The notes: generated from the sequence alone by a model not told the origin. DNA of 64,000 nt from Psammoneis japonica (GCA_008632985.1 QPGO01000037.1:434001-498000); one strand, 5' to 3'. Shown: positions 3,001-64,000, counted from the stretch's first letter. Program-made: numbers and translations.

Positions 3001-6000
3001 TGATCCTTTGCTGAGGCGGATACTTCTCGATTTCGGATTTCGGTCTCCATTTCTTCTTTCTGCCGACGAACAGCCTGGAGTTCCTGGCTCATGATCTGCA
3101 CTTCCTTCTCTCGTTCCGCGCGAAGTCTCTCTAGCTCACTAATCTTCTTTAGAGCAGCCTCTTTGTCAGCCTCGCTTTCAGAAAGCTGGCGAAGTCGTTC
3201 CTCGTTGGCATTTTGTACCTCTCGAAGTCTCGAAGACTCTGATTTCGCGTTCTGCAACTGTTCACGCAGTTGCAGAGCCTCTTCGGTAGACATGACTGGG
3301 TCGGCAGTACGAGAGAGAGTACTTAGCTGCGCCTCTTGAGCTTCTCTCTCCTTCAGTGCTGATTCGAGGTTCTGTTCTGCCATCGAAAGGGCGCCACGAA
3401 GCCGTTCTACTTCCATGTTCAGGGCAGTCTTGTCTTGCTTAAGCGCTGATACCTGCCCTGATAATCCGGAGTGGTGTTCAACTGCCTTTGCCATCCATTC
3501 CTGAGCCGCTTCGTTTGAAGCTTTCAGTTCAGAGATTTCTTCCGAATCTTTCTGAGCTTGGGCGAGCTTACTCTCTAAGTCAAGTATAGTGCTGTCTCGA
3601 CGACGAATTTCTTCGCTTTCCCGTTTCACCGCATCCGTGAGCTGCTGGTGCGCAACTCGAGCTTCATCTTCGAGACGAGAGACAGTATCTCTCAATGGTT
3701 GCAGTTCTTGGCTGTTTTTCGCCTCCGTCACGATCCTTTGTTGCAAGGACTCGACCTCTCTCTGGAGCATTGCAACTCTTCGTTTTTGAGGCGGCGAGGG
3801 CGTCCCTCTCTAGGCGAAGTTGTGAAAGGGCAGCGACATTCGCGTCACTAACGCTGGATTTGTTGTCGCGTAGGGACTTATTCTCCATCCGGGTACTGTC
3901 TAAGCCCCCTTGCAAGGCATCGACGGTTCGTTCTAGCTCTTCGCGCTCAGTCTTGGATTTTGCCAGAGAGTCCATCGCCGAAGCAACGTCTTTTTGGCAA
4001 CTCGCCAATTCCGCCTCTAGCTGCTGAGTGCGAGCGAGATCATGGCGCGTCTCATGGCCAGTGACTCCGGCCAACTGCTGTTTCAAGGCCTCATTTTCTT
4101 GATGCATGGATGCATTCTGGCCACCAATTTCTTCCATTCGCTGCATGGCCATTTTCATCCAGTTATCCGCAGCGACAGCTTCAGAGCGAAGACGTGCATT
4201 TTCATCGCGTAGCGTGGCAACATCCGATTCAACACGAGAAGATGTCTGCTGTTGCGACACTTCTCCCTCGGGCTGGTGCCCGGGTGCAGGAGGCATGGAA
4301 GACTCGGACCTTTCGCCTGTTGGAGCTGCCGTTGCCGTTGAAGGGGCGCCAACGCGGCTGTTATACTCGGCTTCCAGAGTGTTGTACGCACCACTCAACG
4401 CTACCATCTCTTCTCGAAGAGAATCGCGTTCTTCCCTGGCTTCCCTTTCCCGATTTTTCCATTCCGTCAACTCGCGATGAACGGCCTCCAGCTGTTCATC
4501 CTTCGCCTTGATCCGCGACTGCTCTTGCTCCTCCTTTTGGCGAGATCGTCCTTGAGAGTATTCACAGTCGCGTTTAATTCTTCGTTCTTGGAGGTAAATT
4601 CAGTTAGCATTTCGTCTAACTGTGTTGGATTGCTTGCAACTCTTCGCCTCCAAGTATTGAGTTGCTCTTCTTGAGACTTTATCGTGGCTTGTGCAGCTGC
4701 TAGAGACTCCTGCAATCCCATCAACTCAGCAGACTGCTGGACATGAGTCGGCGCAGCGACTTCACTCCTCCTTCAACAAAGACATCACCTTCTCCTTCCT
4801 CGTCATCATCATCTTCCGTAGACTTTCCACCCGAAGTGAGTTCATGGACAACTCGCTTTCGACCGTGTGGACTTGCGCCTTGTACCATGTCTGAAAGATC
4901 TCTTCTTCAAGCTTACAGGCCGACCACGGGAGAGATGACTTATCTTCTCGCTTTAGCGACTCGAGTGCGGCGGTGTATCCACTATACCTTTCTTTCGATT
5001 TGAAATCATGGAAAGAATTCCCTGCTTGGTCCATCCGCCATACTCGTCCTCGGATCCTTCCGTGGCAATACCATCCATGGCCAAGCCCAACAAGAGACCG
5101 GCAAGAGTGGAGACCTTGGCCTTGTCGGCACTAGTTTTCTGAAACAAGACACCCAAAGATGTAATGTAGGTGGAAAGCAAGACCGCCTTGACAACCGCAG
5201 GAGTGTCTTGCATCCATTCGCAAACAAAACGAAGCAAAGCCAGAGCAATAATGTCATCTTGATTTTCCAGCGACTGGAAAATAGCATCCAACAGATTCAG
5301 TGGCGCCGTGATGCGAAGAAGCATTTCACGTGTCGTGTCTCCGGCGACAGTAAAGAACAGACCGAGCGCGCCAAGGCTGCCCAAGAGATTGATTCGTCTT
5401 CGTTCCAGCATGGCATTGCCTTCTTCGGGAGGCGCCTCGAGGTTCTCCGCCACGGTATTCAAAAGTTTCTGAACAACTGTAGGAGGTTCGTCTTCACTTG
5501 GTGGAGTCATTGTGTGACCCACCAAGAGACAGGCCTTTTCCGCAGTCAGGGTGTTGCGAAGGACGTGAAGAGCCGATTGAGAGACGGCGAGCTTTTCGTC
5601 CCACGTGGTGGCGGTAGCTCCGCCGCCGGTGCAAACCAGATAAAGCAGTCGATCCAGGCCGTTGTGGCGTGCCATCGTTTCCTCGTCATGAAAGCGTGTA
5701 GCCACAACCTGGAGTGCACGTTGTTGCAAAGCCGCAGAAGGCATGGCACATGCTGGGTCGGCGGCAGGTGGCGGTGGGGAGACAAGTGCAAACTCCCATA
5801 CCAACGAAGACAATGCCGGATGCTGTTTCCAAATAGTGCGTTGATGGTCTGAAGTCGAAAGCAGCAAGTCTAAAACATCAAAGACATGCTCCAAGACTTT
5901 TTCCTCCTTGTCGGTGAGTCGTGGAGTAGGAGGTTTCGAAGACGCAGCTGAATCACCACCCTTGAGGATATCATCCAGATCATCCTTCACTTGCACAACC

Positions 6001-6806
6001 GGCTTGGGAGGATTCCGGAATTCCGTACCACCTCGCAGATCCAACAGAGCGCTCAACTTTTGAGGAAACGTTGCAGCGCTGCTGCTCAAGACCAAATCGA
6101 CCGAGGACGCCGGATCGTGCTTGAGGAGCAACCGACACAGCTCCAAACAATCTTGTACTACAACATTGCCTCCCGTCAAACCACCTTCAGACAAAGCTAA
6201 TCCCAGTGCCACATCACACACTTCACAGAACACCCAAACTTTGGCACAGCTCGGCCACGTGGCAATCGTCAATCCCACCAGCAAGGCTTCGTTGCGAACT
6301 TGCTCGTCTGAATCCGACAGCAGATCCGCAAGTCTGTGCAAGCCATTGGGGGTTTCCAACAATTGCTGCTGCGCCAAGGTTGGAGACGACTTTGAAATTT
6401 GTTCCAACACTTGCAACGCCAAGACGCGGGCATAGGAATTTCCAGAAGACGACGAGGAAGAATGATCGGTGGGAGTCACGACATCTAGCAGCGTCTGTAC
6501 AAGTTTACCTGGAGGAGACGGTTGGTTCAATAGTACTTGACGTGCGTCACGCGACGCTGACGCAAACAGCTTGAGATAGACACGACATGCTAGCGCCGGA
6601 CCCTCTTCGACATCAAAGCCGTTTAATTTTCCTTCCAATACGTGCAAGAGCGCTGTAAGGAGTCGGTCATCGTCCTCGTGTTGTCGCGTGATTTGATCTG
6701 AAAGCTGCTCCGATTCTAACAGCGCTTTGAGCGAGTCGACTGCGTCAGCAGCGCTGCTGGCTGATACGAAACGATCTATAAGAATATCGGCGGATGCTTC
6801 TGCCAT
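1..6806 (-). CDS. USO1: Uso1/p115-like vesicle tethering protein (armadillo head + very long coiled coil); 3' end runs off the window
   Basis: ORF 4953-6806 has the p115-head-like motif 'QQQLLETPNGLHRLADLLSDSDEQVRNEALL'. Downstream minus-strand ORFs (4762-5034, 4467-4724, 3664-4470, 2859-3770, 2129-2695, 1662-2195, 943-1617, 821-1033) are continuous E/Q/K/L heptad coiled coil. They are joined by GT-AG introns at 2129-2208, 1599-1684 and 1075-1175 plus several 1-nt frameshifts. Confidence 0.8.
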
Positions 6807-7130
6807 GTTTATTGTGTTTTAGTTTTGTATCAACGCGACGACGATGGCCTTTTTAGCACCGGCACACCGTCATTTGCAGATGCCAGAGGCGACTGCAAAA
6901 TTTTGAGTCTTTGGACAAGCTTTGGATAATGCCAGTACTGAATAACGTAGAATTCTACGGTACGTCACAGTGTGCCTCGATGGTGGCAAGATCGCGGGGC
7001 GAAGGACAAACCATCACTCTCAAGCAACAGCTCGATCGCGCGTGCGCGCTCGGCCGGCTTGGTCTCGCCGTCATCTCGTCTGACATCATCTTGAGACAGA
7101 AGATGCATGATGGGATGATGGGCGACCACA

Positions 7131-8119
7131 ATGAGAGGCGCTTGTCTGAAGGCGTTGGTAGACCTTGAGAACATTCGAGAGGAAGGCAGAGTGAGAATGA
7201 AGACAAACAGCATTCCACCGCCAGCTGACAACAACGTCCTTCTTGCTGTGGCAAGGGTGCGAAACGTCTTCACAACCAGAAGAAAGTGCGCGTGCAATCA
7301 AAGTCGACTGAACAAAGGTGGGTGGGTGACCATTTCCATCGGCGTTGCTCAAGAGGAAGTCAAATGGAGAAATGTTGTGTGGGTGCAACAAGATCAGGCC
7401 CATGCCATTCTTCAGTTGGGGGTGACGACATTTTGTGCTGATTCGCACACTTGCACACCTGGGAGCTGGGGAGGAGCTTGTTGATCCCACAGAGCCCCCA
7501 GCAGACGTCCAAGATCTTTCCTCATGGAAGCCAGTTGCTCCTGAAACTCTCAACACCCAGCTCTCCTTGCGCGATGCAGCTCAGCTGCATGCTTGCCTGT
7601 CTCAGGTTTGCAAGCGCTTCAAGAACCTTTGCGACAAAAATTTGGCTGGGACTCCAGGTCCTGGATGCCAACCTGCACGTTTTTTCTTGGTGCAAATGCT
7701 TTCCTTGGCTGACTCGCCATTGCTTGTTGCTGTGGAGCATCAACTTCCATCATGGGGTTCTCCATGACAACATGATCTTGGCCCACGTTCTTGAACAATG
7801 TGGTGTGTCAAAGCCAGCAACCTTTGCAACTTTGCCCAAATCCAGCCCTGGAGACTTTGACTGCAACTTTTCCTTCACTTCAAGCTGGCGCCACGCTTCC
7901 TTGTTCTGTCAGAATCCCTGTGTTCCAGGATCTGGCATGATGGCATCAGATCCAACAATGTTTGACTTGCTTTCTGTTGAAGATCAAAGACCCCCAGCTT
8001 TGCTTTTACAAATGGCACAGCAGTGGTGTGGGTTTGCTGGTCATGTTCTCAACAACTGCAACATTGAATCAAGAGGACAACTGCATGACATTGTTTGTGG
8101 AATGTGCCCTGAAGGTTGA
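7131..8119 (+). pseudogene. Decayed protein-coding remnant of unknown family, followed by the piggyBac-like MITE
   Basis: Frameshifted, protein-like segments such as 'LIRTLAHLGAGEELVDPTEPPADVQDLSSWKPVAPETLNTQLSLRDAAQLHACLSQVCKRFKNLCDKNL'. His/Cys occur where Tyr would be plausible (TAY->CAY/TGY). Confidence 0.4.
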
Positions 8120-8178
8120 CACCCCTGTTGTGGGGGGAGACACAGGCAGTTGCTGGTGCAGAAAAGAGACAATCTTAA

Positions 8179-8657
8179 CCCTTTAACCACCGGACTTGAG
8201 CAAATCTCCGTGGGTGGAGATTTGCTTGCTAACATCACAAACACAAAAAAAAAAAAAACATTCTCAGATGTGCACAACAAAGAATTTGCACAATTTTGTT
8301 TTGGAACGTGCACTCTCACCGAAAGCTCCATGGGGCCATTCTTGCAATTTAGAAAGTTCAATGTTGACTTTTAACACCGGGTTTTTGCATGCTTCATCTG
8401 TGGACAGAGAGGAGCTAAATCATGATGAGTTGCCATCACAACAGAGCACTGAATGCAACACCCTTGGAGCACATCTCCAAAGGTGGAGATTTGCTTGCAA
8501 TGAGTGAATGCATGTGGTGTGTTTTACATGGATTGCACATGATGTGACATTTTCATGCTGCGCACATTGTGCCAACATGCGAAAGCATGACACGTCACAA
8601 TTCCTCAAGTGGGGCAAATCTCCACCCATGGAGATTTGCTCTGTGGTGGTTGAAGGG
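8179..8657. mobile_element. piggyBac-like non-autonomous element (MITE, 479 bp), decayed
   Basis: TTAA (8175-8178) is followed by left TIR CCCTTTAACCACC. The right TIR GGTGGTTGAAGGG (8645-8657) matches 12/13. A 28-bp subterminal inverted repeat (8198-8225 vs 8614-8641) matches 27/28, with a third partial copy near 8467-8498. The right flank reads TCAC rather than TTAA. Confidence 0.75.
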
Positions 8658-11600
8658 TCACATGTTTGCCTGGTTTGGCAGGAGGTCAACGGAAGAAAGC
8701 CTCTTTGGCTCAGCGGCATTGTCTGCTCCTTCCCACTGATTTGGTTGCTCTTTACGACAACTGGAAGTTCACTCACATGTGTGAGCTTCAAGTGGAATCT
8801 GAAAGCTTGCAGCACATTGACGTGGGTCATTCCAAGTTTGTGTGGCTAACTCACTGTCAGTGTCCAAGGCTTTGACAACTTGTCTGTGTCGGCGGCCATT
8901 GTGGAAATGGGGTGCGACCATCACTTGAGAATGGTGATCTGGACACAGACGCATTTGGAGAATTCTGAGCTGGAAGCACTCATTTTAATGGAGATTTGGT
9001 CATGTGATTTAGGAGTGATTCATCCCTCCATTTTCCAGGGTTGTTTGTCCCTGATTCCTGTTTTGCACTTTCATGCTGAAGAAGAACTGGCTTTGTCAAG
9101 AGCAGCGCAACAGTGCTCTGACCAAATCACTGCATTTTGGATGAGTTGAAACAGAACAGTGCCCTCATGCAACACATGATTAGATGCAGTCAAACAGCTG
9201 AAAATGATGAAAATTGTTCATTCTGGGGAAATTTTGGTCAGTCTGGGGTGTTTCACATGGAACAGCAACAGAGCTGCAAACAAGAAAGGATTTGACTCAA
9301 TGAAAAAACAAAAACCCACGTGCATCATTTGGTGGTTGCTTCTGGAGTCTGCTCTCTCCTGAGACTCATGTGAAAATCCCAAGCCCCAGTCATTTTTTTC
9401 ATGCCCTGCTCCTCACAACATGGGCTGGTCTGTTGACTTTGCCGCCACCCACCTGAGCATGCAAAAAGGGCAGGTCATCAAATGTCTAACATGCAAAAAA
9501 GACTGGTCAACAAATGTTTTGACAATTGCGTCCTTGCTTCTTGAAATGGAAGCAGGATGTGCCACATTGAGAGGCACATCACAGCCCTTGCTGCTGCCCA
9601 TGCTGGTGGTGTGACATGGCACGCCAATTGAGGCCAGTGCCCCCAGATGATTTGTGGGGCAGAAATCGAGCACAAGACACTCCACAGCAGCACCAACAAG
9701 AATGGTGGTTGAATTGGGGGGGGGGGCTCATGCTGGGCTTCGGTGACTTGGATCACTTGGAGGAACCATCGCTGAGTTGGTTGAAACAAAGAGGATGAAG
9801 ATGAGTTGAAAACAACAAAAGGGAGAAATGAGAGAAGTGCCATGAGACAGGCCACCCTGAGGACAAAGGAGGAAGAGGGAGGTGAGTTCAGCCCTCAAGC
9901 AAAAGCAGAAAGAAGTTGGCTTTCCATGTCAGGATCTAGCAGCCAGAAGACAACAACTGCAGCCTGCAAACAGCTGCAAGCACAGCCATGACAAGCTCTT
10001 TCCATCTGCCATTGGCATTTCTAAGAAAAAGAAGCTGGCAATGCTGTTGCACTGGTGCTGAAACAAGGTGGCAGAAAGGAGTGGAGGACCCAGATTGTCT
10101 GGGTCAGGGACAGCACTGAGGTTGACTTGAGGTGTGCCCTTCACACTGCAGGACATGGTGCCAACCAGCAAGCAAGTGGCTGCATTTGTCACCAAAGCAC
10201 AGCTTGAAGATTTTGCTGTTGCCTCAACAGTGCCCTTGGATGCCAGCAAGGCTAAAGAGGAGACACTGTGGCAACAGCAAGTGGGCAGTGGCTTTGGGCA
10301 CATGGCAGCAGCAAATCTGGGCATGTGAACCTTGCTGCTGTCCATTGCTTGAAACATGCCCAAGACACCACACCAACTGCCTTTGACAGGAAGCATGTTG
10401 GCCATCCCATGGCATCTTCCAGGAGCACCAGCTGATGCAAAATGGGCTGTTTCATCAACTCATGTGTTGAAATGACACCATCACTGACCTGCCACATCTA
10501 AATCAGTTCACACATTTGTTTCTGTGTTGCACAGATTTGCTTCCTCAGCAACCTTGCATGTTGAGTTTCTGTGGGGCATCAAAGCCCTTCGAATGCAACC
10601 AATTCATTTTAGAAGAAATGTGCCACAGCTGTTCAATTCCTTTGTTGCTGCACATGTGTCATTTTCACTTCACATTGTTGATTGGCTCCACTTCCACTGT
10701 CACAACATCAATGGGTGGAAAGCACTCTTTGTGTGATCCAAAAATTTCACTGTCAAAGTTTGTCAAGTTGCAGATTCCCAATGAACAGTTGCTTGCACAA
10801 CTGGAAGTTTTTGTTGACACTCACAAGGACAACCATTTGTGTTGCAATGCAATTGGACCAATGAGAATGGGAAATGAAGAACAGCCACTTGTTTGGGCAC
10901 ACTGTGGCAGGTCTTTTCAGTGTGCCAAAACATGTGCAACAAACAAAAGCAAAATTGTTTTGGTTTCACATGTTTGTTCCCAAGTTGGGTGACAGCCGCG
11001 CTGCGCTGTGCCATTGGTGGAGATGGAGATGTGCCAGTGACACCTGCAGCATGGGCAACAAGTGCAGCAATGGCCAGCTGAAACTCAGCACAGTCAATGA
11101 TGCAATGGGCACCATGACATCACAACTCAGCATTGCTGAAGTTGTTTGGGCTTGAGCAGCTCATCTTGCAAAATGATGTCTTGCAGCATCAAAGAAAAAT
11201 TCCTGGCAGACTGGAAGTTCTGGGCATGCATCAAAGTGCTCATCTTTGTCACCTTTGGCAACCAACTTGTGGACCTTGAAAGGTGGCATGGTCTTGTCAT
11301 TTGCAGCTCCCTCTGAATCTAACACCTTGCACTTGTTCAATTGCTTGATCTTCAAATGATGACACTGTGGCAAGGTGCAGGGTGTCAAATTGACACAGCC
11401 ATGCATTGAGCACACTTGGGCCACCTCATGGGTTTGGGAACAAAGACATCCCAGGGGAGTTCAGGGGTGAATCTGGAGAGCTTGTTCAAGGTGGACAGAG
11501 AGCCATCACAGTGTGCACCAATTGCACAGGCAATGGCACCCCAATGACACAGACAGCTGAGTGGGGCAGCTTGCACTTGAGATGGCAGCAGCAATGCAGT

Positions 11601-13673
11601 GGTGACAGAGGATTGCCACCAGCGCCAACTGGCCATGGGATGCCTTCCCAAAGCATGGCAGAGAGCAAAAAAATGGGACTTGAGTGGGGGGCAGAAGCAA
11701 CTGCAAAGAGGCTGAGAGGCACCAGTTCAAGGACATTTGGAGCAGGCTCAGAGGTTGCATCAAAGAACTCACCATCAGAGTTTGCGGACTTGTTGGGCAG
11801 TGATGGATCATCCAAAACATCATTGGAGCCCTCAGGAAGCATGGAGGACAGAAAGAGAATGATGGGTGGATTGTCTCAATCCAGGTTGTTGCAAGCATTG
11901 AAGCAGTCACTGCAATCCCCAGCATCCTCAGGCAAGTTCCACCACCTCAGACACAAAATTGCATTGCTCCCTCTGGGATGGCAGGACCAGCACAAATGAA
12001 AACACACATCTCAAAAGATCAGTGGCACTGGCACTGTCTCTCCACAATTGGGCAACAATGGAGCCCTGTCCAAACTGGCCCCTCCTTCGACAGCAGAGAA
12101 TCAAGGGATCACACACTGACCCCTTGAGAGAATCACCATCCTTGGACTTGGCATCAGGCTTGACAGCAGACATGGGGTTGGCATTGGTCTGAGCTGGAAG
12201 TTCAGCTTGCATGCCAGAGTTGAGATCAGCTGTGGAGGTGATGTTTGCACCCAGCAGCTGCTCCTTTTTTGGTGACTTGTTGGCACAGCCAGGATTGCTG
12301 TTGTGATCCCAGCAAGATCTGCCAGCTGGGTGTGTCAAGGAGGCTTGCCAGCCAACAACTGTTTTTGAGTGGGCAGCTTGTAGAACTGCACACCAAGTGA
12401 AGCTTGAGGACAGTCAATGGCAAATGTGCAGAAGACTTGTGACATTGTCATTTGAGAGGTGCAGCCCTTGATGGATGGGAGAGGCACAAAGAAAAGTCAA
12501 AGAAACTTGACCCAGGTTTGGAGTTGAAAAACAGTCTGACAATGGCAGGTCAAAACAATGAAACAATGCTCTTCCAGGACCATGCAGATCAACTCAGTGG
12601 TGGCACACAACAAACAAACACAGGGCTGAGGATTCTTGTTTTGACAATCACAGGAAATGCAGCAGCTCAACCACACGTGACATCGTCTGTTGTTGTGACT
12701 GGAGATTGATGCAGATTGAGAGACAATGAGACCAATCAAAAATGATGAATGAATTGCTCATTGGAGACTCCTTGAAAGGCGCTTCTGGTGGCGGGGTGGA
12801 ATGTGCACACTCCTTTGTTGTGAGGAAGCCGGGGCTCCCAGGAAGACACAGTGGTGTTGCTTTGCAATGCAACAGCAGGTTGCTCAAGGTTGCAACAGTG
12901 GTTGACATGAATGCAAAAGTTCTTGCTGGAGAAATCAAGTTGCTGCAAACTGAGCAGAGACCAGGCAATCATCATTTTTCTTGTCACAATTTTTGCAAGG
13001 AGAAAAAATGGATTTGATGCCAATCACATCAGACACCTGTTTGTGGCCCACATGTGGGCCGCAAATTTTTTTCAAATCTTCAATGACAGAGACAATTGAT
13101 GAACAGACCCTGCAGTTCAATTCTCCATGCCCGAAAACACAGGAATCAACACTTCATCTGTTGAGAAAGGCCCGCTGGTTGTTGTTGTGGCCTCTAAAGT
13201 GTGCTTGTGTTTTTGCCCAATTTTTTGCCATTTTCTCTCTCTGCCATGGCGGACCCTGCAACTGGCCCCACTGGGGAAGGATGTTCACTCCAACAACCTC
13301 AGATGCCTGACAACATTGTTGGGGAAATGCTCTCCATGTGTCAGAATTGCTTGCAGCAGGAACAGACATGACTTTTTTGCCTGTTCAAGACATGCCATGA
13401 AATAATTTGTTGCAGTCTGCTGCCAAAGCACCATCTGTTCCTGCACATGCCCCCCCCAAGTCTTCCTGTGGAGGCACCAGTGGCCAAGAGAGCTTGAGCA
13501 TGATTCAGCACTGCCAAACAAAAGTTGATTGTTTCTGATGTGAAGCACGCACATCCTCAACACCATCTTTTGATCACACTCTTGAGGCAATGTCAACCTG
13601 CATGCCACAACTGATTCAATGGCTGCTTTTGACATTGGCAAGTTTCAATTTTTAAGAAACATTCTTTGGACCT

Positions 13674-13791
13674 CCTTCACAACAGAAGCAGAAATGCCAG
13701 AGGTGTGACACAGCAATCTTCGTTGGCATGCCTTCACAACAGAACAAGCAGAAATGCCAAAAGTGAGACATGGCAATCTTCATTCTGCATG
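13674..13791 (+). repeat. Two-copy ~57-61 bp tandem duplication
   Basis: CCTTCACAACAGAAGCAGAAATGCCAGAGGTGTGACACAGCAATCTTCGTTGGCATG is followed at 13731 by CCTTCACAACAGAACAAGCAGAAATGCCAAAAGTGAGACATGGCAATCTTCATTCTGCATG. Confidence 0.85.
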
Positions 13792-16700
13792 CACACAATT
13801 GGACCACTGCATGATGATGGTTGCAGTGCTTGTGATGTTGTTTCACACTTCCTTGCCTGGGGTCCAAGCCGAGTTGTTCGTTGTGGCATGCCTGCCCATT
13901 GTTGACATGTGCTGGGCCATTTCGGTGCTTGGTGCCTGCTTGCCACAATGTTCAATGACTTGAACAGAACAGCAGCAAAAGATGACAACTGCAAAGGATG
14001 CATCATTTCATCATTGAGAAGGGTGTCGCTTGTTTTGAATCTCTGTTCTTTCATCATGCCAGCAGAGCTTTCAAGGTGATGCAGGCATGACACCAAAATG
14101 ACTGTGACTTTGATGCAATGACTCCCAATGCACATGTGTGGGCTTGAGGGTTTGGGGGGGAGCTGGGGCTCCCCAGTTTATTTCGTCTGGCAAGATGGGT
14201 CATGAGCCAATGCCATGGAGGATGATGTGCCTGTTGCGGATGACTCATCTGGCGAAAGCAACCGCCACTGGTTTTAGGCTGTGTGCCTCTTGCCTTGGTT
14301 CAGCTGTCTTCTGGTGAAGCCGGGCAGAGTCTTTTCTCTGCTGAGGAACTTGCTCAATGAGAATCAAGAGTTCTCTTGGACAAGATCATGCTCTCTCTCT
14401 CTTTCTTGCATGCTCAAAGCAGCTCAACACTTTCAAAACAGCCCAGTTTGTGTGATGACTTTCTCCAAAAACTGGGCCCCTGCTTTTTTTGTCAGGGGGA
14501 TTCCCCTTTTCACTGCAAAGTGCTCCACAATTTGCTCTTAAAAAGAAACAGTGAGAACAAAATCATTGTTCTTGTGACATCACACACTGGAAGCTGTGTG
14601 GAATGTGTGCATGACTCCTCAATGCACAACAGCTCAGGATTGTCATGCAGCACAGTGGTGTTGATTGTGTGCTGCCAGTCACAGCAACCAGCTCACACTC
14701 ACTTCCACCACACTTGTGCCCCCCCCCCCCTCTCAAGCAAATCTGCAATCTGCAAGTGCATGAATGGCTCAGTGCTGGAGACTGTGAGATGAATGAATTT
14801 TGTCCAGCACATTTCCATCTGAGAACTTCAGCTCTGAAGCTGGCAGCACCAGATGCACCCCAGTGCTCTGCCCACTTTCATGGGTGACCACATGTCAGCC
14901 AGAGGCTCCAACCTTCCATTCTTTGTTGGCATCACTTTGTTTGCATTGTTGGCTTTGTGCCATCAAGTGTTGGGTCTCTTGCCAGAAAGACATGAAAAGT
15001 GCTGGTGATGAAAGGATGAGATCTCCATCATTGCAAGTCCAGAGTCAATGATCTGAGTGCCAAAAGCTTTGGCCACTGCAGTTGCCATTGTTTTGTTCAG
15101 CCTGCTGTGCTTGTCACAATGACACATCACACATGTGCATTGTCTGCTGGCAGCAAACCAAACATTGTCAATGTGACACTTCCATCACAGAATGAGCACA
15201 CATGGTGCCAGTCTCTGAGAGTTGGTTTGATGACATTCACTGCCAGACACAGTGCATCTTCCATTGAGTTGGGTGTCACCACAAGTGTGAAAAAGAAATG
15301 GAGGATCTCTCTCAGAGCACACAACAAAACAGCTTTTCAGCCTCCTGACAGCTTGCAATGACACAAAGTTTGCCATGGACACAATGTTTTGAGACAAGAG
15401 GGAGCCAAAAGGAGAGTGTGTTGGCAGAGATCAACAAAGATGCCTTCGCAACTGTGGCAGGCCATGAAATGTCTTTTGACAAATGATGTCTGGAATGGGA
15501 CAGGGAACATCAAGATGCAGTTGAGAAATTAACTGTTGAAGGTGGGGACAAACGCCAACAAAAATGTGCATGAGGGCAAAAGCTGCATGCAGCACATCAT
15601 TCTGGCAAGAAACAACAAACAAAACATTCAATGGCATTGCCTTCAGATTCTCTTTGCCATGAGGAGCCATCTTCATTTCCTTTGAAAAGCAGCATTTGAT
15701 CTGCTGTGGAGTGCAAAAGCACTGCTCAAGGGAGAGCAGACAAAATTGTCATGTGCTTCTCACCTTTCAAAGGTCAAGGCACAGTCAGCAGCGTCGCACC
15801 CATCTTCTCCTGCACTTTCATCTTGAACAGGAGCGCCTTGGCCAGCTTCGTGGGAAACACATCAAGGGCTCAGCATGTGTGAGGGTTGGGGTTTCCTTGG
15901 ACAAAAATGAAAAATGTCTGCAAGGACAAACTCAAACTGTTTTTTTGGGTGCACTTTAAACTTGACTTGGAAACACCCCCAGTCTCAACTCAAGAGCTGA
16001 CTCCAACAACATTGTGGTCGACTTTTCCACCAGAGTGATTTTTTCATTGCCACACAGAGTCACAAAGGATTTCCTCATGTTGGTTTGAAATGAAACAGAT
16101 TTTTCATCATCTTTGATGGATTGTAGACAAGGCATCTTGTTCTGACAGGCTTTGACTGCAGGAACACAGAAAATGTTTGCTGTTTCTCTCTGTCTCCCGT
16201 GAAACTCAAGTTCTCTGAGTTCCAGCAACCTCTCAGCAGCTTTGCTTTTGAGCAAAAACTGTGATGAGGTTGGGTGTGGCTTTTCCAAGCTTGATGAGCA
16301 GTGATGTTGCCAATGTGACTCTGGCTGCTGGTGAGCTGCTCCAACACACAGTCGTGTTAACAGAGTTGTTGTTTTTTTCATCATCGCTTTTTTGTTTTGG
16401 TTTCTCCTTTGCAGGGGCCCCACACTTCTGCCTCAAAATGAGCAACTGGTGCCATGTCACACTCATTTGGGGACAGAAGATGGGAGCATCACATTGACAG
16501 CACTTGCTGCACACAGGCATTTCATCATCCTCAACCCCGGCATCACCTTGCCTTGAGGAGAGCGATGCACTGCCCTGAGAACAGCAGCAGCTCCATGATC
16601 TCTGTGTGGCTGCTCAATCTCAGCACCCACAGATTGGACTTGTTCAGACATCTGAGATGCTGTTGCAATAAGTGCTGTTGACTGACAAAAAGAGTGGCAG

Positions 16701-17412
16701 CAGCAGTGATCAAAGCCAGCACTTTGTTGTGCCCTTGCTTTGTCGTGTGCAGCACGTGTGCTGTTGAGATGCACCAGCACGTCTTTGTTTTCAGTTTGTG
16801 CCAGTGTTTCACACAGAATCCTCTCATCTTTTGACTGGATGATTTTTGGAGCAAGGCATGTTCAGAGTTGTGCTTTGGGACTTGGGCAAAGTGGATGATT
16901 CTTGGGGTGTGCATCATGCAATTTTCGGCAGATGGTGAGAAGAGCGACAGTTAAGAGACCAGCGGGAGGGGGTCGATTGCCTTTTGTTGCTCTCTGATGA
17001 CTCTTCTTCCTCCAGTGTCTGATGCACTCTTGGGTGAGCTCTCTGGTTGGTTGTGGCGTACAGCACAACGTTGATGAAAGAAAGGAATGAGCTTGTTTTG
17101 CGGCTCTGTCACATGGGGCGAGGTGCTCCTCATGCGGCAGATGACGACGAGACTGCTCACTCTCCTCGAGCGAGCGCGCCGAAAACAACGTGAAACAACC
17201 AGCCACGCACCTCGCGCAGGGGGGGGGGGGCACAGGGCACAGGGCACAGACCAAGTACTTACTTCTACCAGGTGCTGTACATAGACTACCGTACCGTACA
17301 GTACAGCGCATACATCGTCCGTTGAAACTGATCCGTTCAACGCTCGCTCTGCACAGTCGTTGGAAATCCCTCATCCCTCCAAACCTCACTCACAATTCTG
17401 TGAATCCTTCAC

Positions 17413-18016
17413 TAGGGTTTTCGATCGTAGGGAATTCCTTATTCGACCCTGAATTTCCTTAGATGAGGAAAGATGAGGAAACCAGATAAGGAAAAGTTAA
17501 TTATCGTGATTTACCACGTAGTTACAACTAACATGATCCTTTCATCTACTCTAGCGGTCGACGACTTGTCTCTAGAGTAGAGCCTGTAACTACTAATACA
17601 CTTCAACACACTACTGTACATTCAACGAGTAAGGTAGACGCCATTGGGCACCACAATCTTGGGTCCAAAGAGACAACATGCTTCCATGTTATCTTCCAGC
17701 CTGTTCTTTCCAATCGAGTCCACAACAAGCTCAAGCTGGGAGAAGAGACTTTCAACAGATGCACTTGTCAATAAGGAGCTCCTTGTGCTTTCTCTGGCTA
17801 TCCATACCCTCATTGTCCATCGTCGACAACGGCTCATCACGCACGACGAGTTCGTTCCGTGTGCTTTTTCGCTCATGGTAGCGCGCAGAAAACACGCGCA
17901 GCGTCACAGCTGACGTCATAATCTACGTAGGATTCTACGTGAATCTTAGTACAAAGATTTTTCCTTATCTTCTTCCTTGGGCTGACCACTTCCTTACCGT
18001 ACGATCGAAAACCCTA
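17413..18016. mobile_element. Non-autonomous hAT-superfamily DNA transposon (604 bp), recent insertion
   Basis: Perfect 17-bp TIRs TAGGGTTTTCGATCGTA (17413-17429) / TACGATCGAAAACCCTA (18000-18016). Perfect 8-bp TSD TCCTTCAC (17405-17412, 18017-18024). Subterminal TTCCTT(A)/AGGAAA repeats are present. Confidence 0.92.
17667..17768 (-). pseudogene. Remnant of a hAT transposase C-terminal dimerisation domain
   Basis: 'TSASVESLFSQLELVVDSIGKNRLEDNMEACCLF' resembles the hATC motif S-S-A-x-V-E-R-x-F-S and lies inside the hAT TIRs. Confidence 0.6.
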
Positions 18017-18308
18017 TCCTTCACTGTAACAGCTAAACTCTTTATCAGTCCAAATGCCCATGTAATGGTTGTCAACTAGTTCTGGCTGCTACTAGCCCGG
18101 TATGTCAACACACTCTCTCGCCTTCCCGCCTTCCCGCCTTTTGATGTTCCGCCAACAACACAAAAAATTTGGCCGAATGCGTGAAGCGTGCCGCGTGCCG
18201 CCCTCACAAATCAGTTTGTCTGCATTCACTCCATGCCTGTAGCTGGATTGTTGCTGTTGTTTGGCGAAGATTTGAGACTTTCACTACATTTCAAATCGGG
18301 AGAACATC

Positions 18309-54156: not shown

Positions 54157-57100
54157 CAGCATGCAAAATTTCAACTCATCATTGAGACATTTCAACAACA
54201 CGGTGTTTCCATACGAAGTCATTGCTGACCGCGCGCCGACGCGACCAATGACGCGACCAATGACGCGACGGGCATCGGCGTCAACCAATTATCATCGCAT
54301 CTCTTTGCTTCACGCATTAATTGCGCGCTTCTTTCCGGCCCTGCTTCGTGCTTCCACGTGTGCGCAAAAAGAAGACCCCCGTTTTCAACTCCCGAGGAAA
54401 TTCGGGCTGTCAACGTGGTTGCAGGTTAAAGCGTGGTCCCTGCTGCTGCTGCTGCTGCAGGATGTCACAGATCAGGAGAGGGTGTCAGCATGCTGACCCT
54501 GTGGGTGAAAGTGGGGCTCATGTCTGCCTCTTTTCGTTCTTTCTTGCTGGCACACACACGCTGCTGGTGGCGGCGGTTTTTGGCGGGGACGAGAGCCCTT
54601 GTGCTTGAAGGGTCGTGGTGTCAGTGGGCTTGTCAAGCAGCAGCTGGAAAAGAGCTGTTGTTGCTTGTTGCCAACCCAATGAAGAAACAACAGCCGCTGC
54701 TCACCTTGGGCTCTGGCGCCAGCATTTGCAAACAACTTGACAGCTCTGCCAGCAAACTCAGCCAGCGTGCCCGTGGAGCTCTTTCAGCTCAAGCAAGGAA
54801 CAGCCATGGATGGATTTTTGGAACCCCCCTGGGGTTTCAACAACACAGCGCTGACAAGCTCATGTTGGAGCTGACTGGTCATGGAGACTTGCCTCTGAAT
54901 GACTGCCTGTGACAAAAAAAAAAGCTTCACTGCGGTGCCGCAGTTGTCAAAAAATCTGCGCTGAGACTTTGCAAGTTTTGTGCAAGTCAATCTCTGGCAG
55001 TTGAGCACACCCAGCACACGTTTTGTCAGCACGAGAGAACCTTTCCAAGAGAAGGGTGGCAAACCAGCAGATGACACTGTGGCCAGGTCAACAAATGAAG
55101 AAACTGCACAGGGCAACAATGCCTCACACTCCCAAGAAACTCCAATGGCAGCAGGGTGCATGTGCTGGTCCCATCAAAGTTTTCAACAAAAAAGTCAACG
55201 GCAGTTTTCAACAAAAATCTTGCAGATCAATTGAGCCATGAACCAAAGAACAACTCTGTCAATTGACAAACAAAAAAACAAAGTCAATCAAGGGGACATT
55301 CTGGCAAGCCACAATGTCGCCAAATCTCATTGAGAAAAATGGAGCTGTGTGGTGTGGCAAAAATGAAGCAACAACAGCTGTCTCGCTGGACAAAGCACCT
55401 CTGCCACATTTTGCTTCATCTCTGAAAAACACAGTGGACAAAAAGAAAGCATCGCACAACAGCACTCAAGATTGCTGGAAAAACATGGGTGCATGGCAGG
55501 CAACTGTTGACAAGGATGCTCAAATCTTGGTTGCCAAATGAGGCATCTTGATCAAATCTCAGGGGCTTGACAGCACTCTTTGTTGACCCCCCCCCCCCCC
55601 CCCAGTCAGAAACTGCAGAGTCACTGTTGACAATGGCTGGGGGGGGGAGGTGAGAAGTGAAACATGACACACCTTGCAGCCTGCCAGAAACAACAGAGGG
55701 GGGACAGGCTGTGCAGTGGAAGGCAACAATGCTTGGCAGCCCTTTGTGGCACCAGCCACTGCAGATGGCTTGCTTGCAGGCACCACAACAGACACAGCGG
55801 ACTTGACATCCAGGGAAGCAGCACTCTCACAAGAGATCCATTTGAGTGTCCTCAACAAATGATGAATCTTCAATTTGAGGTGCAGCAACAGCAAAAAAAA
55901 ACTCAAGCCGCGCCTCATGGAACCTTTTTTGCACACATTTTCAAATGTTCAGAGTTGTGCCATCTGATTGCACCATCACAGCAGCACTTTTAATGTGAGC
56001 ACAATGGTCCAATTGACAACTTCATGCTCTGAGTGCAGTGCTTTGAATCATTTTCATAAGCTCCGAATGACAAAATTTGCTCCAATTGTGCTCTGCACAG
56101 GTGCCGCCACATCAAATGACTCTCTTTTGCTCTGCATGTCTTGCAGTGTAAAAAAGTGATTTTTGAATGAGTCTTTGCTCAGAATGAAACATTGAGAGCC
56201 GACCACAAGTGAAGCGTGTCTCATGTGCAGTGCAAACTGTCGCTGATGGGCAATGACTGTCATGGCAACAACTCATCATCTTTCATCTCTTCTTGCTTCG
56301 TGCGCTGCACTTGCTTTGTGGCCCACCTTTGTGCTTCCACATGCAAAAGGAAAGACCCCGTTTCAACTGTGCCAAGGAAATTTGGGGTGCAAAAAGAAGG
56401 CTGTCAATTGGGGTGCAAAAAGAAGGCTGTCAATGAGGTCACAGGGCAGCCCCTGGGGTTCGTCCCTCATGCTTGCTCGCACAACAAAGACACTCCATGA
56501 AAAAGTCAGAATTGCGCTCCAGTGTCCAGCGCCCCATGAGCAACACCTGCCTGCTGCCTGCTGCACTGAGGATTGTTGCACAGAAAATCTGTGCCAAAGC
56601 AAAAGTCTGTGCTTGTGTTTTGCAGCTTTTGACGCCACCCTCCTTCTTGTCATGCAGATCCTGGGCAAAAAGCAGAAAAGCACATTTGGCATGCAAAACC
56701 ATGGAGTGAGAGCACTGGTGGACAAAACACACATTGGATGTGCTCAGCTGCCACAGAGATTGATTTGCATGACTTGCAAAGCCACCATGGAATTTTTGAC
56801 AACCACGATGCCACAGTGAAGCCTTTGTCAAAGGCAGCTGTTTTCTGAGGTGGGTCTCCATGATCAATCAGCTCCAAACATGAATTTGAGAGCATTGCCT
56901 TGTTCCATCCATGGCTTGCTTGAGCTGAGAAGGTTCTAAGGGCACATTGGCTGAATTTTTGGCAGAATTGTCAAGCTGTTTGCAAATGCTGACAAAGACC
57001 AAAATGAGTGGCAAATGATTGTTGTTTCTTCATTGGGCTGGCAACAAGCAATGGCGCTTCTTTTCCAACTGCTTGACAAGCCCACTCATGCTCTTCAAGC

Positions 57101-59610
57101 ACAAGACGTGGGTGCTTTCCCACAAACCAGCGCCCTTGTTGCACATCTGTGCAGATCTCTTGTTGAGTTGGCTCTGCTGCAAATGATCTCTCTTGTGCTG
57201 CATCTTGCTTGAAACAGACACACATGCGCGGCTGTCAATCTTGAGGAAATGCCGACAAAAACACCCAACATTCAGTGCTGTTGAGCCATCACCTGGCATT
57301 TCTGGCACAGGCTGGCCCATGCTTCTAGCACACCAGCTGGCATGGGGCAGAAGGAGCAAGGGATCCGCTGGTGGTCAAGGCCTCACCCAGTCATGGCACC
57401 ACCTTGCAAAAAAAAAAATGAAATCCATTTTACCGCTGCCTCGCTGCCGCCCACACCAACACTGACCACAGCAGACCCACATTCCCCAGCACCCACAAAG
57501 GGTGGCAGGGACAATTTGAACACTGTCAAACGTTGTCAGAAAGACAAAGCCATCAACATGTTGTCCAAAGGCAACGCCGTTGGTGCATCATCAGAAAGAG
57601 GCTGTTTGTTTTGAGTCAGAATGGCACCAGCCGGATGCTTGCTGCATGGCAACACAGTTGCTGTGCCTCAAAGAATGGACAAGCCCAGCTGCACCGCTTC
57701 GGAGACACCAAAATGAACACTGCAGAAAACTAAAACTTGTGTCCATCTCCGAAGATGATTTGCTTGAAGAAAATGTGAATGAAATTCCTGGCATGAAACC
57801 ATCCAGGAAGCCCAACATGGACCCCAACGATGAAAGGAAATGATGATCACGGAAAATGCCATCATGCGCAGAATTGCACAGGAATTGTTGTGCACTGAAG
57901 CTGCAGCATTGAAGTGCAAAAAGAGTGCAAACACTCGGACCTGGAAATGCTGGCCACTTGAAAGACTTGTGAAGACCCACTTTGAAGCGCTGTGAAGTGT
58001 TGATCATGACATTGAATTGCACTGCAAAGAAAACTTGGAGGAAGAATGTTGGCAAGAAAAACAAAGGATGAAACTTGAAACAGTCTTGACTTGAAATTCT
58101 GGCCAAACACGCAGAATTGCACATTGAATTTGTGCTGAAATGGCTGACTTGGAAATTGCTGAATCACGCAGAAATTAACGTAGAAAACATGCTGACATGA
58201 GGAAAGAAAATGCAAAGAGATGCAACACCATGGCGGCGCCACTCCCCCAGATGCAGACACAACAGAGTGTCCCCTCCAACACCTTTTGGTTTCTCTGTCA
58301 TTGGCGCAACTGCCTGACATCCCAAAGTGCCCGAAGAGGTTGGCATGCCACCACCACACTCTCGCATGGGACAATCCTCCTGCAGGAGCTTGCACAGAAT
58401 TGCGGCACCACCTTGCAGTGACACTGCCCACCAGAGACTGCTGGCTGAAATGAGACAACACAGGAAAGAGGTCATTGCTTTCTTTTCAGCTGAGTGCAAA
58501 ATGTCCACACTGAAACAGCAAAAGATGGTTGCACTCAGAAGAGGGAGCAAAAACAGCACAAGATCTGGGAGAGAAATGTTGCTTCCAAGGACAAAGGTCT
58601 TGTCTTCACCAAAAACAGACTGGACTTCACACATTTGTTGGGTGCTAGAACAAAGGCAGCAAAGAGCTTGCCATGTGGAACAACATGACCTGGACAAGCG
58701 TGCATGCAAGAAAAAGGAGGATGTTCAGGACTTGCAGGTGCAAAATGGAGAGCCTTGGTGTGACGTGAAGAGACAGGCACCAAAGAAATGTTTTTTGCAA
58801 GTGGAGATGGATGACACCAGAGCTGTGCAGAAATGCTAATCTGCACAGCAGATGGATGACAACTGTCAATCAGCGATGCCAAAGGTTGACTCAGGTGCAC
58901 ACTCACCAGCGCCACAACAGAGGAGACAGGCCAGCTGAACTTGTGCCTGGTCCTGTGTGGAAAGTTGCAGAGTCAGCAGGAAATCATCAGGGTGCTGGCT
59001 TGTCATGGTTGGCTGCATCATGCTCATGCAAATCTTGCCCATGGGAGGGACAGAAGAAAGAAGTCCATTGTCCCTGGGCAACAAATGCAAGTCAAGACAA
59101 GCAGGGACAAAAACAACCTCTGTGCTTCCACTCAGTTCAGCGTGCATCAAATCCTGTGGAGCAAACTGAAGAGACTTGTTGTGCAGCAATGCCCTTTTGT
59201 GTGAGGTTGGCGCCGCTGCAAAAAATGATTTCTTCCACTGCATCTTGATTGAAACAGACATGCACACACACACATGGCTGATGATCTTGAGAAAATGTCC
59301 ATGAAAAACAAATGTTCAACCTTGAGTGCTTGTGCAATGTCCTGTGTGTAAAGTTTGCAGAGTTGGTGGGAAATCACCAGACAATGCAGCAAGCATGATG
59401 AGGGCCACAAGGCATCACAAAGCCCATTGTTTTCCAATGATGATTGGTGGTTGTCACACTGAAACAAGGGTGCACATTGGCAGAAATGGCCAGGGTGGCC
59501 TTGGGGGACCCAGCAAAAGATGATCATCTGAGAAGGGAAACATCAGCTTGAGAAGGAGGTGCACAGAAACACATGAACACAGCAGGGTCATTCCTGCAGT
59601 GCCACCCTTA
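54157..59610. mobile_element. Decayed nested DNA-transposon block (possibly Tc1/mariner/IS630-like), TpA- and CpG-depleted
   Basis: Begins TA|CAG at 54155-54159, with a 12-bp tandem GACGCGACCAAT at 54238-54269. Diverged internal direct repeats (54280-54415 ~ 56270-56410; 57160-57260 ~ 59205-59300) and an inverted repeat (54598-54813 ~ 56904-57104). 'NPVEQ'/'WSKLKRLV' near 59150 resembles the IS630/Tc1 'NPIExxWxxLK' motif. Confidence 0.6.
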
Positions 59611-61749: not shown

Positions 61750-64000
61750 GGTGAAGCTAATGCCAGCACATTTATTTTCAAAAAGAGATTGGAGTGATGG
61801 CACGCAACAAGTCCAGATTTGCAGCCAACTCCGCTCCGACACAAAACCATTTTCTTGTCGTGTCTTCGTGTGCTCCACCACAGATTCCCGGCACAATGGT
61901 TTCAGAACAATGCAGATTCAGAAAACAAGGGCACACAACAAGTGAGTGGGCAGGAACCCATGAGAAATGTTGCCTTCATCTTGAAGAAGGCCCCACAACT
62001 CGCACACCATGTCTTGCAAAGTGCTCAAGTGTGGCGCGAACCTGTGGCTCCAAATCCACTCCAATCTTGTCGGCCTCTGAGTGACTGTCCTTGCAAGACA
62101 ATCTACTGTGGCTCTGGGCAGGAGAAGTTGTGTGGTGAGTGATGCAGTCGTGTGTTGCACATTTGACATTTTGTGCTGTCATGCTAAAATGATTGCCACC
62201 GCGCCAGTGCCGCGCACCGGTGTTTTTGTTGCCGCAGGTGGATTGATGGTTCCATGCATCGGGTGGGGTTCTCATTTGTTTCCAACATCTAAAAACAATG
62301 TTTTGATGTCAGGCCTTTTAGAGAGATTCCCTTCGGGAATGCTTTTGGAACGCTTTTGGTGTGGCTCCGGAATGGTGGAAACACGGGAATGACGAAATGC
62401 CCATTTCGTCGAACAGCATTTCCATGTTGGAGCTGTTGGCGGTTGTCACAGATGTGGTTTAGTGTCAAACAATGCCAGCAGTTACAACACATCCTTGCAG
62501 CTCAACTTGTGGCCACTGCAACTCCAAATCATTGAGACTTCTGACAGCCGCTCTTTTCTCAGAGAAAATGGAAACGTGTTTTGACGGGTGCACCTTTTGG
62601 CAATGAATCCATCTAATCTGTTAAACTTTTACACTGCTGTGCCACACTCAAATGGTTCTAACTGTGGTGCACTGACAACAGCGCATCACATGTCTCATTG
62701 GCGAATTGACCGGCTCCAAAGTTTGATTTCCGCGTGAATTGGTGCATTTGAGAACGTTCTTGGAACGGTTTTGGAACACTTTTGGAACGCTTTTGGAATG
62801 GCATGCAAGGGAATCTTGAACGACAATGATCCAAAACAGTCCAGCCCTGGTCCCCCCCAAGAGGCCTTTTTTGGTTTTGGCGTTTGGAGCCATTTGGCGG
62901 GATTTGAATTTGAGGTCTGCACTGTCGCACGAAGTGATGAGGTTGAGACAGTCGTGACTGATTCAAATTGGAGTTCGGGATCAAGAAGGGAACTCAACGG
63001 CATCTTGCTCTCCAGTCGCAACATGCCACAATGTGCAGAAATGCCTGGACAAATGCTGTGCTCATGGCAACTCCCATGACATGTGTGTCCAGACATTGGA
63101 ATGTGCGCACAGTCTAAAATGAGCTGACGGGCAGGCACCAACAGAAGGAAGGTGTCGTCATCGTCGATCATCGCGCCATTTTGTCGTTCATTCAGTGTGC
63201 TTGATGTCACCAGCACACCAACCCAATTGAGCAAGTGGAGGTCATTTTTCATGCACAACATTGTTTTGACATTCTCGCTCTGGTGGGCTGTCTTCTCAAT
63301 GAGAAATTTCGGTGGGGTCTGGTGAAGACAATCCGAGTGGTGCAACGCCCGCATTTCCAGGGGCATTTTGTCTCAGCACCGATTGGAAAAAAAGACAACT
63401 GAGAAACCTTCCATGGAATTTCGACGTTTTGTGAAATCAAACAGAGTCTCAAATGCACAGGATTTGTCCTGCAGCTGAGTGCTTCGAATGTTGTGCATCT
63501 GTGGTGTGTCCCCTGGCAAAAAGCACAAGGATGTGTTTTCATCCCAGGTGAGAAACTTTTGGACACATCACGAGGTTTTCTACGTGTTTCTACATGAGAC
63601 GTACATTTAGCACCAAAAATCTCAGTAAAAAACGAGCTCCATGACAGCAAAAACACATTTTTCCATGTCTCGAACCACAAACCACAATTCGCGCAAACCG
63701 AAAATGGCACCATGCCGTCGCCATGAACTCGTCCATTCTTGCACCAACGGATGTTGTGACTGAGAAGGTGAGAATGCCGAGACAGGTCAACAAGACAACG
63801 CTCAATTGCGATGATGTGGTTGAAAATTTGATCTTTGTTTTTTGTTGTGCCTCATGGATGGCCTTTTGACTCGTGACATTTTTGATGCCTCTTTCTCTCT
63901 TCCTCAGCTTGCGAAGCAGGATTCTCATCAACGCGCTGCTCCATCTGCTTGACACCGGACACTGACAATGAAGAATGTTTCTATGACACGTTGCTGTGAT
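61750..64000. mobile_element. Third TpA-depleted transposon-derived block (CpG only partly lost), runs off the window; possible Ulp1-like protease remnant on the minus strand
   Basis: TA is rare and ORFs are nearly Tyr-free. Contains 11-bp subterminal-type repeats. Fragments 'SFFPIG...W', 'HHSDCL', 'CPGISAHCGM' are weakly reminiscent of the Ulp1 proteases carried by Mutator-like elements. Confidence 0.5.
62747..62801 (+). repeat. 11-bp tandem repeat TTTTGGAACGC (~5 units; second cluster 62332-62359)
   Basis: TTTGAGAACGT TCTTGGAACGG TTTTGGAACAC TTTTGGAACGC TTTTGGAATGG. Confidence 0.85.

Follow-up and report, generated by a model that had tools for sequence, protein, structure and literature searches.

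Conversion of TA to TG/CA, symmetric between the strands and dependent on sequence context, in bounded non-coding domains of the diatom Psammoneis japonica

TA-poor blocks between the genes of the window

The DNA studied here is a stretch of 64,000 nucleotides from the diatom Psammoneis japonica (GCA_008632985.1 QPGO01000037.1:434001-498000), which we call the window, and our subject is the loss of the dinucleotide TA (TpA) from three non-coding blocks within it, named A, B and C (Table 1). Outside the blocks, the window carries long, intron-poor open reading frames (ORFs) for ordinary eukaryotic proteins, with Exportin-T, M50 peptidase, TPR, ankyrin and kinase domains. The nearest relatives of the Exportin-T are diatom proteins with at most 52% identity, and those named belong to Cylindrotheca, Pseudo-nitzschia, Nitzschia and Bacillariaceae. 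The window is accordingly nuclear, and its diatom is without a near relative among the proteins compared. A six-frame read-through of blocks A and B matched no Pfam family, and the 62 ORFs of at least 90 amino acids gave only three weak, sub-threshold matches (Caskin1-CID, F-box-like and F-box), so that the blocks are not recognizable as autonomous transposons. There were no Rfam matches and no tRNAs in a tRNA scan.

Table 1. Blocks, shoulders and repeats, with positions counted from the first letter of the window
Feature	Position	Strand	Basis
Block A: TA-free, CG-poor, TG/CA-rich, non-coding	6962..17255		composition and edges
Block B: second TA-free, CG-poor domain	54428..59608		composition and edges
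Block C: partly converted, continues past the window end	61774..64000		composition
Shoulder, TA-free yet CG-dense	17057..17255		TA and CG positions at edges
Shoulders of like kind	6962-7100; ~54155-54432		TA and CG positions at edges
High-copy repeat in block A resembling a miniature inverted-repeat transposable element (MITE), partly converted	8178..8658		inverted ends 8178-8225, 8614-8658
Unconverted multi-copy repeat adjoining block A	17256..18075		depth 480-690 vs ~65
Left arm of old inverted duplication in block B	54598..55013	+	69% identity over 425 bp
Right arm of the inverted duplication in block B	56735..57105	-	69% identity over 425 bp

The dinucleotide composition sets the blocks apart from their surroundings. 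In 1-kb segments from 7001 to 17000 and from 55001 to 59000, the observed/expected ratio (o/e) was 0.02 to 0.15 for TA, 0.05 to 0.54 for CG and 1.5 to 2.1 for TG/CA. The segments from 62001 to 64000, in block C, showed a TA o/e of 0.10 to 0.15 and a CG o/e of about 0.7 (0.12 and 0.66 for the block overall), and the remainder of the window gave 0.32 to 0.84 for TA and 0.78 to 1.27 for CG. The GC content is the same inside and outside the blocks. For counting, we used the cores of block A (7201-17000) and block B (54501-59500), together 14,800 bp. Per kb, these cores hold 3.0 TA, 11.3 CG, 111.0 TG and 113.3 CA, compared with 37.8, 57.1, 72.4 and 69.9 outside the blocks; 80.6 TA plus CG are thus missing and 82.0 TG plus CA are extra. 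This equality of loss and gain is what transitions at both steps would be expected to produce (C to T at CG; at TA, either A to G or T to C). About one quarter of the window has been shaped by the TpA process.

Outside the blocks, the 31,840 bp of long ORFs were separated from the remaining 14,007 bp, which were taken as intergenic. Trinucleotides that contain neither TA nor CG and are not conversion products had block/intergenic ratios of 0.76 to 1.3, with two exceptions in blocks A and B, GCC/GGC (1.5-fold) and CCC/GGG (1.8-fold), neither of which is a product of TA or CG conversion.

Flanking bases of the remaining TAs

An earlier note on this DNA had claimed by eye that the TAs left in the blocks are mostly YTAR (Y, pyrimidine; R, purine) and that GTAC, ATAT, GTAT and ATAC are gone from the cores. 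The counts bear out both claims, and more strongly than the eye could tell. The cores of blocks A and B retain 45 TAs, of which 32 are YTAR (12 TTAA, 12 CTAA, 5 TTAG and 3 CTAG) and 13 belong to the mixed classes, that is, 8 RTAR (3 ATAA, 2 GTAA and 3 GTAG) and 5 YTAY (4 TTAC and 1 TTAT), while the four RTAY tetramers are all at zero; every TA position that had been cited as an example was located within 1 base. The core of block A contributes 33 of these TAs, 25 of them YTAR, and the preference appears in its repeat-depth DNA (11 of 15) as well as in its single-copy-depth DNA (14 of 18). Counted within wider limits, block A (7101-17100) holds 35 TAs (25 YTAR, 5 RTAR, 4 YTAY and 1 RTAY), the lone RTAY being a GTAC at 17059, at the edge. 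Block B (54451-59550) holds 12 (7 YTAR, 4 RTAR, 1 YTAY and no RTAY), and block C (61901-64000) holds 17 (9 YTAR, 1 RTAR, 6 YTAY and 1 RTAY).

Normal DNA of the window shows the reverse of the blocks, with RTAY as the commonest class and YTAR as the rarest. The 697 intergenic TAs comprise 143 YTAR, 181 RTAR, 183 YTAY and 190 RTAY, and the 1033 coding TAs comprise 162, 247, 283 and 341, respectively. A three-class table of the cores against intergenic DNA gave a chi-square p of 2.5e-14, and against coding DNA p = 7e-21; compared with equal quarters, the deviation was p = 1e-10 for YTAR and p = 2e-6 for RTAY. Under a first-order Markov model derived from the dinucleotides of the blocks themselves, 33% YTAR and 18% RTAY would be expected, whereas 71% (32/45) and none (0/45) were observed (p = 2e-7 and 1.3e-4), so the YTAR excess goes beyond background composition. 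These data confirm that the survival of YTAR and the loss of RTAY in the blocks are real. TA is under-represented outside the blocks as well (o/e 0.49 in ORFs and 0.68 between ORFs); because YTAR is less frequent there than any other class, intergenic DNA included, this ordinary deficit must have a cause different from the block process.

When remaining TAs were compared with the intergenic density, presupposing that the blocks once had today's intergenic NTAN make-up (N, any base), survival was 0.21 for YTAR, 0.034 for RTAR plus YTAY and 0 for RTAY. RTAR (8 against 181 intergenic) and YTAY (5 against 183) were equal within error, which reproduces the order of depletion that had been predicted, RTAY > RTAR = YTAY > YTAR. 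The strong depletion of half-sites indicates that the motif is read per strand over about 3 nucleotides and is not a palindromic tetramer. We therefore fitted a Poisson model in which each strand contributes one factor, fixed by the base 3' of its A, and the two factors multiplied give the survival of the NTAN. The fitted per-strand survival was 0.81 for A, 0.26 for G, 0.08 for C and 0.04 for T. This four-letter, strand-symmetric, multiplicative model fits the counts (deviance 13.8, 12 degrees of freedom [df]), with a similar result in the deep cores, while a model that distinguishes only purines and pyrimidines was rejected (deviance 38.2, 14 df; likelihood ratio p = 5e-6 in favor of four letters). 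The earlier proposal that the target is A in TAY was thus right about a per-strand motif of about 3 nucleotides, but its purine/pyrimidine split proved too coarse, as the difference between TAA and TAG demonstrates.

Strand-symmetrized block/intergenic ratios of trinucleotides were 0.01 for TAT, 0.02 for TAC, 0.07 for TAG and 0.17 for TAA. The AAN, CAN and GAN words had ratios of at least 0.76 or were raised, and trinucleotide loss at A is found only where TA is present. A general A-to-G change was rejected because AA, CA and GA words are retained. WA (W, A or T) is known as the motif of DNA polymerase eta-like mutagenesis, and that candidate was rejected too because AA is undepleted. Positions further downstream also contribute, although with a smaller effect, so that a preference of 3 nucleotides, which the strong depletion of half-sites upholds, does not describe the rule completely. 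Among the 90 surviving half-sites, A stands at +2 in 50% and at +3 in 47%, whereas the corresponding values downstream of TG within these blocks are 24% and 28% (p = 3e-7 and 5e-4); +4 is neutral. C occupies +1 in 9 of the 90, against 29 to 30% in the comparison sets; with so few surviving half-sites of this kind, TAC is lost regardless of the base that follows.

Conversion in place and its relation to CG loss

Reads support block A as resident DNA. Read run X1 contains 96% of the words sampled from 7300 to 16900, and its contigs (depth about 65) match 5914-8226, 8631-13093, 13341-14176 and 14464-17440 with 7 letter differences in total, spanning both edges of the block. Run X2, from the same sample, has cover on the flanks only, to 6886 and from 18070, and none over block A. 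Depth, a rough measure here as it was taken from the contigs of one run, is flank-like (about 64 to 72) in 12 of 22 bins across block A, slightly raised in 3 and high in 7, which suggests that the block is mostly single copy with embedded repeats. Inside block A, the X1 contigs differ from the assembly at five places (9074, 10410-10411, 15793, 16670 and 16759), all of them interconversions among TA, CG, TG and CA. They could be alleles or ongoing conversion; since nothing but interconversions was found, the process may still be running. One of the five is a double TG/CA difference.

The MITE-like repeat in block A allows a direct comparison of copies. Its X1 depth is about 1700 to 2200, compared with about 65 on the flanks, or roughly 30-fold, and all 6 of its TAs are YTAN, 5 of them YTAR. 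After 8386, the window has CTGT and ACAG at sites where CTAT and ATAG stand in the consensus of 10 other copies; relative to these copies, the window has thus undergone one TA-to-TG and one TA-to-CA change, both in a fast context. At 8365, most other copies have CG and the window has TG. Transitions account for 229 of the 318 variant places against the other copies, with several paired CA/TG differences, the variant bases of those copies being taken from 40 of 323 variant entries. The repeat also contains three occurrences of a hairpin motif with 10-base arms and a 6-base loop (at about 8201, 8472 and 8616) and a 14-base A run (8245-8258).

A self-comparison of the window returned only 4 weak repeat pairs. 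Of the differences between the arms of the inverted duplication in block B, 62 are transitions and 13 are transversions, and CA is aligned with TG at 9 places; the pair is short, and mutations have altered its flanks as well. Block B further contains, at 56382-56434, a perfect tandem duplication of a 26-base unit (2.0 copies, 100% match), which is a young event within old converted DNA. In the multi-copy repeat that separates block A from the following gene, TA and CG are at normal levels, with 10 to 19 TAs per 200 bp. Either this repeat arrived after the local process had ended, or it lies outside the marked domain.

The loss of TA and the loss of CG do not share their limits. At 3 of the 4 complete edges, the TA-free zone exceeds the CG-poor zone by 150 to 300 bp, and the resulting shoulders, which adjoin apparent gene starts, demonstrate that the two losses are spatially separable. 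In block C, TA has been lost while two thirds of CG is kept, which places the loss of TA ahead of that of CG. The context range of CG is also milder and of a different kind, with a per-strand survival of 0.25 to 0.68. In the deep cores used for CG contexts (8001-16800 and 55101-59400), CG is kept best in GCGC (0.54), CCGC/GCGG (0.33) and ACGT (0.26) and worst in ACGA/TCGA (0.04 to 0.05), so that R..Y flanks favor the survival of CG and the loss of TA. Among CG trinucleotides, depletion is strongest for TCG (0.13); a general TC-directed deamination of cytosine was rejected, as TCC (0.95) and TCT (0.90) remain. Because the context rule, the edges and block C all differ, we conclude that the TA process is not a by-product of CpG decay.

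Two observations concern DNA outside the blocks. The long ORFs at 4953-6806 (minus strand, 617 amino acids) and 34588-37188 (minus strand, 866 amino acids) match no Pfam family. At 5234-5943, run X2, but not X1, carries a diverged second version of the gene flank, with 5 to 7 other letters per contig of 136 to 485 bases, which may be a second haplotype or a paralogue.

Possible nature of the process

In the blocks, which are bounded non-coding domains, TA has been converted to TG/CA in place, with symmetry between the strands and in dependence on the flanking bases. Composition, mass balance and the comparison of copies lead us to hold, with high confidence, that TA was erased there in situ by context-dependent mutation. 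As a mechanism, we propose that the blocks would be silent non-coding diatom DNA in which pyrimidine-purine steps are driven to a sink state, TG/CA, by two separate transition processes, one turning CpG into TpG/CpA and the other turning TpA into TpG/CpA (A:T to G:C). The TpA process would act directly on resident DNA, without distinction between the strands, and would read the neighbors of the changed base. In an adenine version, the site would be 5'-T-A-N, with T or C at N fastest, G intermediate and A almost immune, and an A-rich +2/+3 flank would add protection; in a thymine version, it would be 5'-N-T-A, with A or G fastest and T immune. As each TA would be exposed once per strand, RTAY would be the first to vanish, then RTAR/YTAY, and TTAA, CTAA and TTAG the last. 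The agent would be a protein-mediated base change restricted to chromatin domains, and in the likeliest chemistry adenine would be deaminated to hypoxanthine and then read as G.

As a whole, this explanation, an in situ TpA process that is mediated by a protein and likely works by adenine deamination, is the one we consider probable. Its parts deserve different degrees of confidence. The 20-fold per-strand context range, the absolute need for a 5' T and the confinement to domains suit a protein that reads T-A-N, and we lean towards an enzyme or other protein as the mediator of the TpA change. Adenine deamination specifically, the simplest chemistry, is put forward tentatively. More speculatively, a natural DNA adenine deaminase directed by chromatin might exist in this diatom lineage, with the TadA/ADAT2 fold or from another deaminase clade. 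It would erase TpA in silenced domains with the preference T-A-(T/C > G >> A) and perhaps also act on (methyl)cytosine at T-C-G, which together would amount to a duplication-independent genome defense and a chemical mirror of repeat-induced point mutation (RIP).

Several points weigh against this explanation. The rule rests on only 45 sites (62 with block C) from a single window, and the survival values carry the presupposition about the original make-up of the blocks. No enzyme, base modification or polarized mutation spectrum was seen. In the mixed flank classes, the favored products YTGY plus RCAR rose by 29.9/kb and the unfavored YCAY plus RTGR by 15.6/kb, but the CG context rule predicts the same excess, which is therefore not independent proof. 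Losses and gains are roughly balanced by R/Y flank class (19.7/21.7, 16.8/14.7, 22.6/15.7 and 21.5/29.9 per kb), but over the 16 flank contexts they are uncorrelated (r = 0.07). At least two block TAs (8230 and 13403) differ from the majority of the other repeat copies and may be new TAs rather than survivors. The sole TA/TG polymorphism, at 16670, alters the A of a TAA, supposedly a slow context. Finally, X1 may be the source sample of the assembly and is then not fully independent of it.

The alternative with the best standing is that thymine is the base attacked. The T in 5'-R-T-A would be modified, for example by oxidation to a base of the 5-hydroxymethyl- or 5-formyl-uracil type, or mis-repaired; it would then pair with G and become C. 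Thymine-modifying TET/JBP enzymes and hydroxymethyluracil at TpA occur in other protists, and if C is methylated, CG and TA would both carry a 5-substituted pyrimidine. Moreover, the data are strictly strand-symmetric, and R-T-A reads equally well: the A in TAY that the earlier note took as the target is the T in RTA on the other strand, and the counts do not tell the attacked base apart. However, our literature search, within the text it could reach, turned up no such base in diatoms, and the differing context rules of CG and TA argue against a single pyrimidine-reading activity. We regard the thymine alternative as possible but well short of probable.

It is improbable that the remaining TAs are mostly new, held in a balance of creation and destruction, so that their context would merely mark where TAs arise, at junctions of T-rich and A-rich sequence. 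The two block TAs that depart from most other copies and the A-rich +2/+3 flanks of the survivors speak for such an origin. Yet Y..R flanks occur in only 406 of 1643 NTGN and 367 of 1677 NCAN of the blocks, so that ordinary transitions at TG/CA, which would be the most frequent origin of new TA, should yield about 23% YTAR, not 71%, and the many RTGY and RCAY should give RTAY, of which there are 0 in 45; context-dependent destruction would still be needed. The MITE-like repeat, in addition, shows CTAT and ATAG lost directly.

A process without any dedicated enzyme is just as doubtful. Under this explanation, TA in alternating purine-pyrimidine runs (RTAY is RYRY) would be the most open step and would suffer spontaneous damage, or polymerase or repair errors, in late-replicating silent chromatin. 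Depletion is indeed stronger the longer the alternation continues (RYRY > RYR or YRY > YYRR), and stiff A-tract flanks would protect. On the other hand, the effect is limited to sharp domains that adjoin normal genes, the loss reaches 94% with context differences of 20-fold per strand, and RTAY is the commonest class elsewhere in the window, so there is no general instability of RTAY in this genome.

Very improbable is an artefact in which a long-read basecaller miscalled modified bases as transitions in DNA that really holds CG and TA. Miscalls at methylated bases are typically transitions, and two of the five differences between assembly and contigs are TG in the window and CG in X1. The X1 contigs, whose library type is not on record, nevertheless agree with block A save for those 7 letters, the differences run in both directions, and miscalls symmetric on the two strands would be expected to yield mixtures, not a clean absence of TA and CG. 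That background composition or selection alone produces the YTAR excess we count as refuted, since the Markov expectation already allows for T being more often after Y and A more often before R in the blocks, and YTAR is the rarest class in intergenic and coding DNA alike.

Known systems and meaning of the context rule

The blocks resemble the products of RIP in Neurospora and other ascomycetes in the regional hypermutation of silenced DNA by transitions, the neighbor-base preference, the skewed dinucleotides and the dead sequence. RIP, however, turns CpA into TpA and so creates TA (PMC7296669), whereas TpA in the blocks falls from 37.8 to 3.0/kb and CpA/TpG rise. RIP also needs duplicated DNA, while our rough measure puts 12 of the 22 bins in block A at single-copy depth and the adjoining multi-copy repeat is untouched. 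As TA is destroyed instead of made, single-copy DNA is hit and a neighboring repeat is spared, RIP was rejected. The decay of CpG through 5-methylcytosine does describe the other half of the pattern, as the blocks have lost about 80 to 90% of their CG to TG/CA (11.3 against 57.1/kb). Deamination of cytosine cannot remove TA, which needs A:T to G:C, and the two losses differ in rule, strength and boundaries.

To our knowledge, no natural process hypermutates A:T to G:C in DNA domain-wide and motif-specifically, and the nearest comparisons are with deaminases. TadA/ADAT2 and the adenine base editors derived from it cause A to be read as G. The native substrate of TadA/ADAT, U33-A34-C35-G36, has U/T at -1 and C at +1, and native TadA demands a strict G at +2 (PMC10586758). 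The blocks share the T at -1. At +1, where that substrate has C, the blocks have lost TAC (0.02) and TAT (0.01) to a like extent and most of TAG (0.07) as well, and a strict G at +2 is not found, TAC being lost whatever follows; the native enzymes, besides, act on tRNA loops. For an amphioxus ADAT2/3, deamination in DNA has been reported of A as well as of C at TCG (PMC10354150). As no CG word of the blocks is depleted more strongly than TCG, this dual activity keeps the idea of a single enzyme alive, although the reported A motif is GAA, not TAY. The transposon hypermutation at TpCpG in Microbotryum and other basidiomycetes, is also trinucleotide-specific and directed at repeats (PMC3318451, PMC5381629), but it is a C-to-T change confined to repeats and comes with no TA loss. 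Hyper-editing by ADAR resembles the blocks in its clustered A-to-G changes, but its substrate is RNA and its edits become fixed in DNA only via a retro-copy, whereas what has been converted in place in the blocks is non-coding DNA in single copy, along with a repeat of DNA type that has inverted ends. ADAR favors U or A on the 5' side and G on the 3' side; in the blocks, AA is undepleted, TAG is lost less than TAT or TAC, and the rule is a strict 5' T with Y > G on the 3' side.

A full-text literature search, limited to non-subscription journals and evaluated mostly from abstracts, turned up no account of TpA being erased, whether in diatoms or in other organisms. A metagenome scan with the Exportin-T alignment recovered 6 short, mostly genic loci (36 kb), none with a TA o/e below 0.2 in any segment, which is too little to judge other diatoms. 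The process appears to be a mutator that reads sequence and is of a previously undescribed kind.

The context rule serves as a fingerprint by which the process can be told from CpG decay and RIP, and it makes a quantitative prediction for all other blocks and repeat families of the genome. Oligonucleotides with TAT or TAC compared with TAA would provide an assay read-out for the responsible protein. If a DNA adenine deaminase is at work, it would represent a new chemistry of genome defense and offer a natural basis for developing base editors; if thymine is attacked, a mutagenic T modification in diatoms would be revealed. Either way, the finding matters for repeat annotation and for mutation models in diatom genomes.

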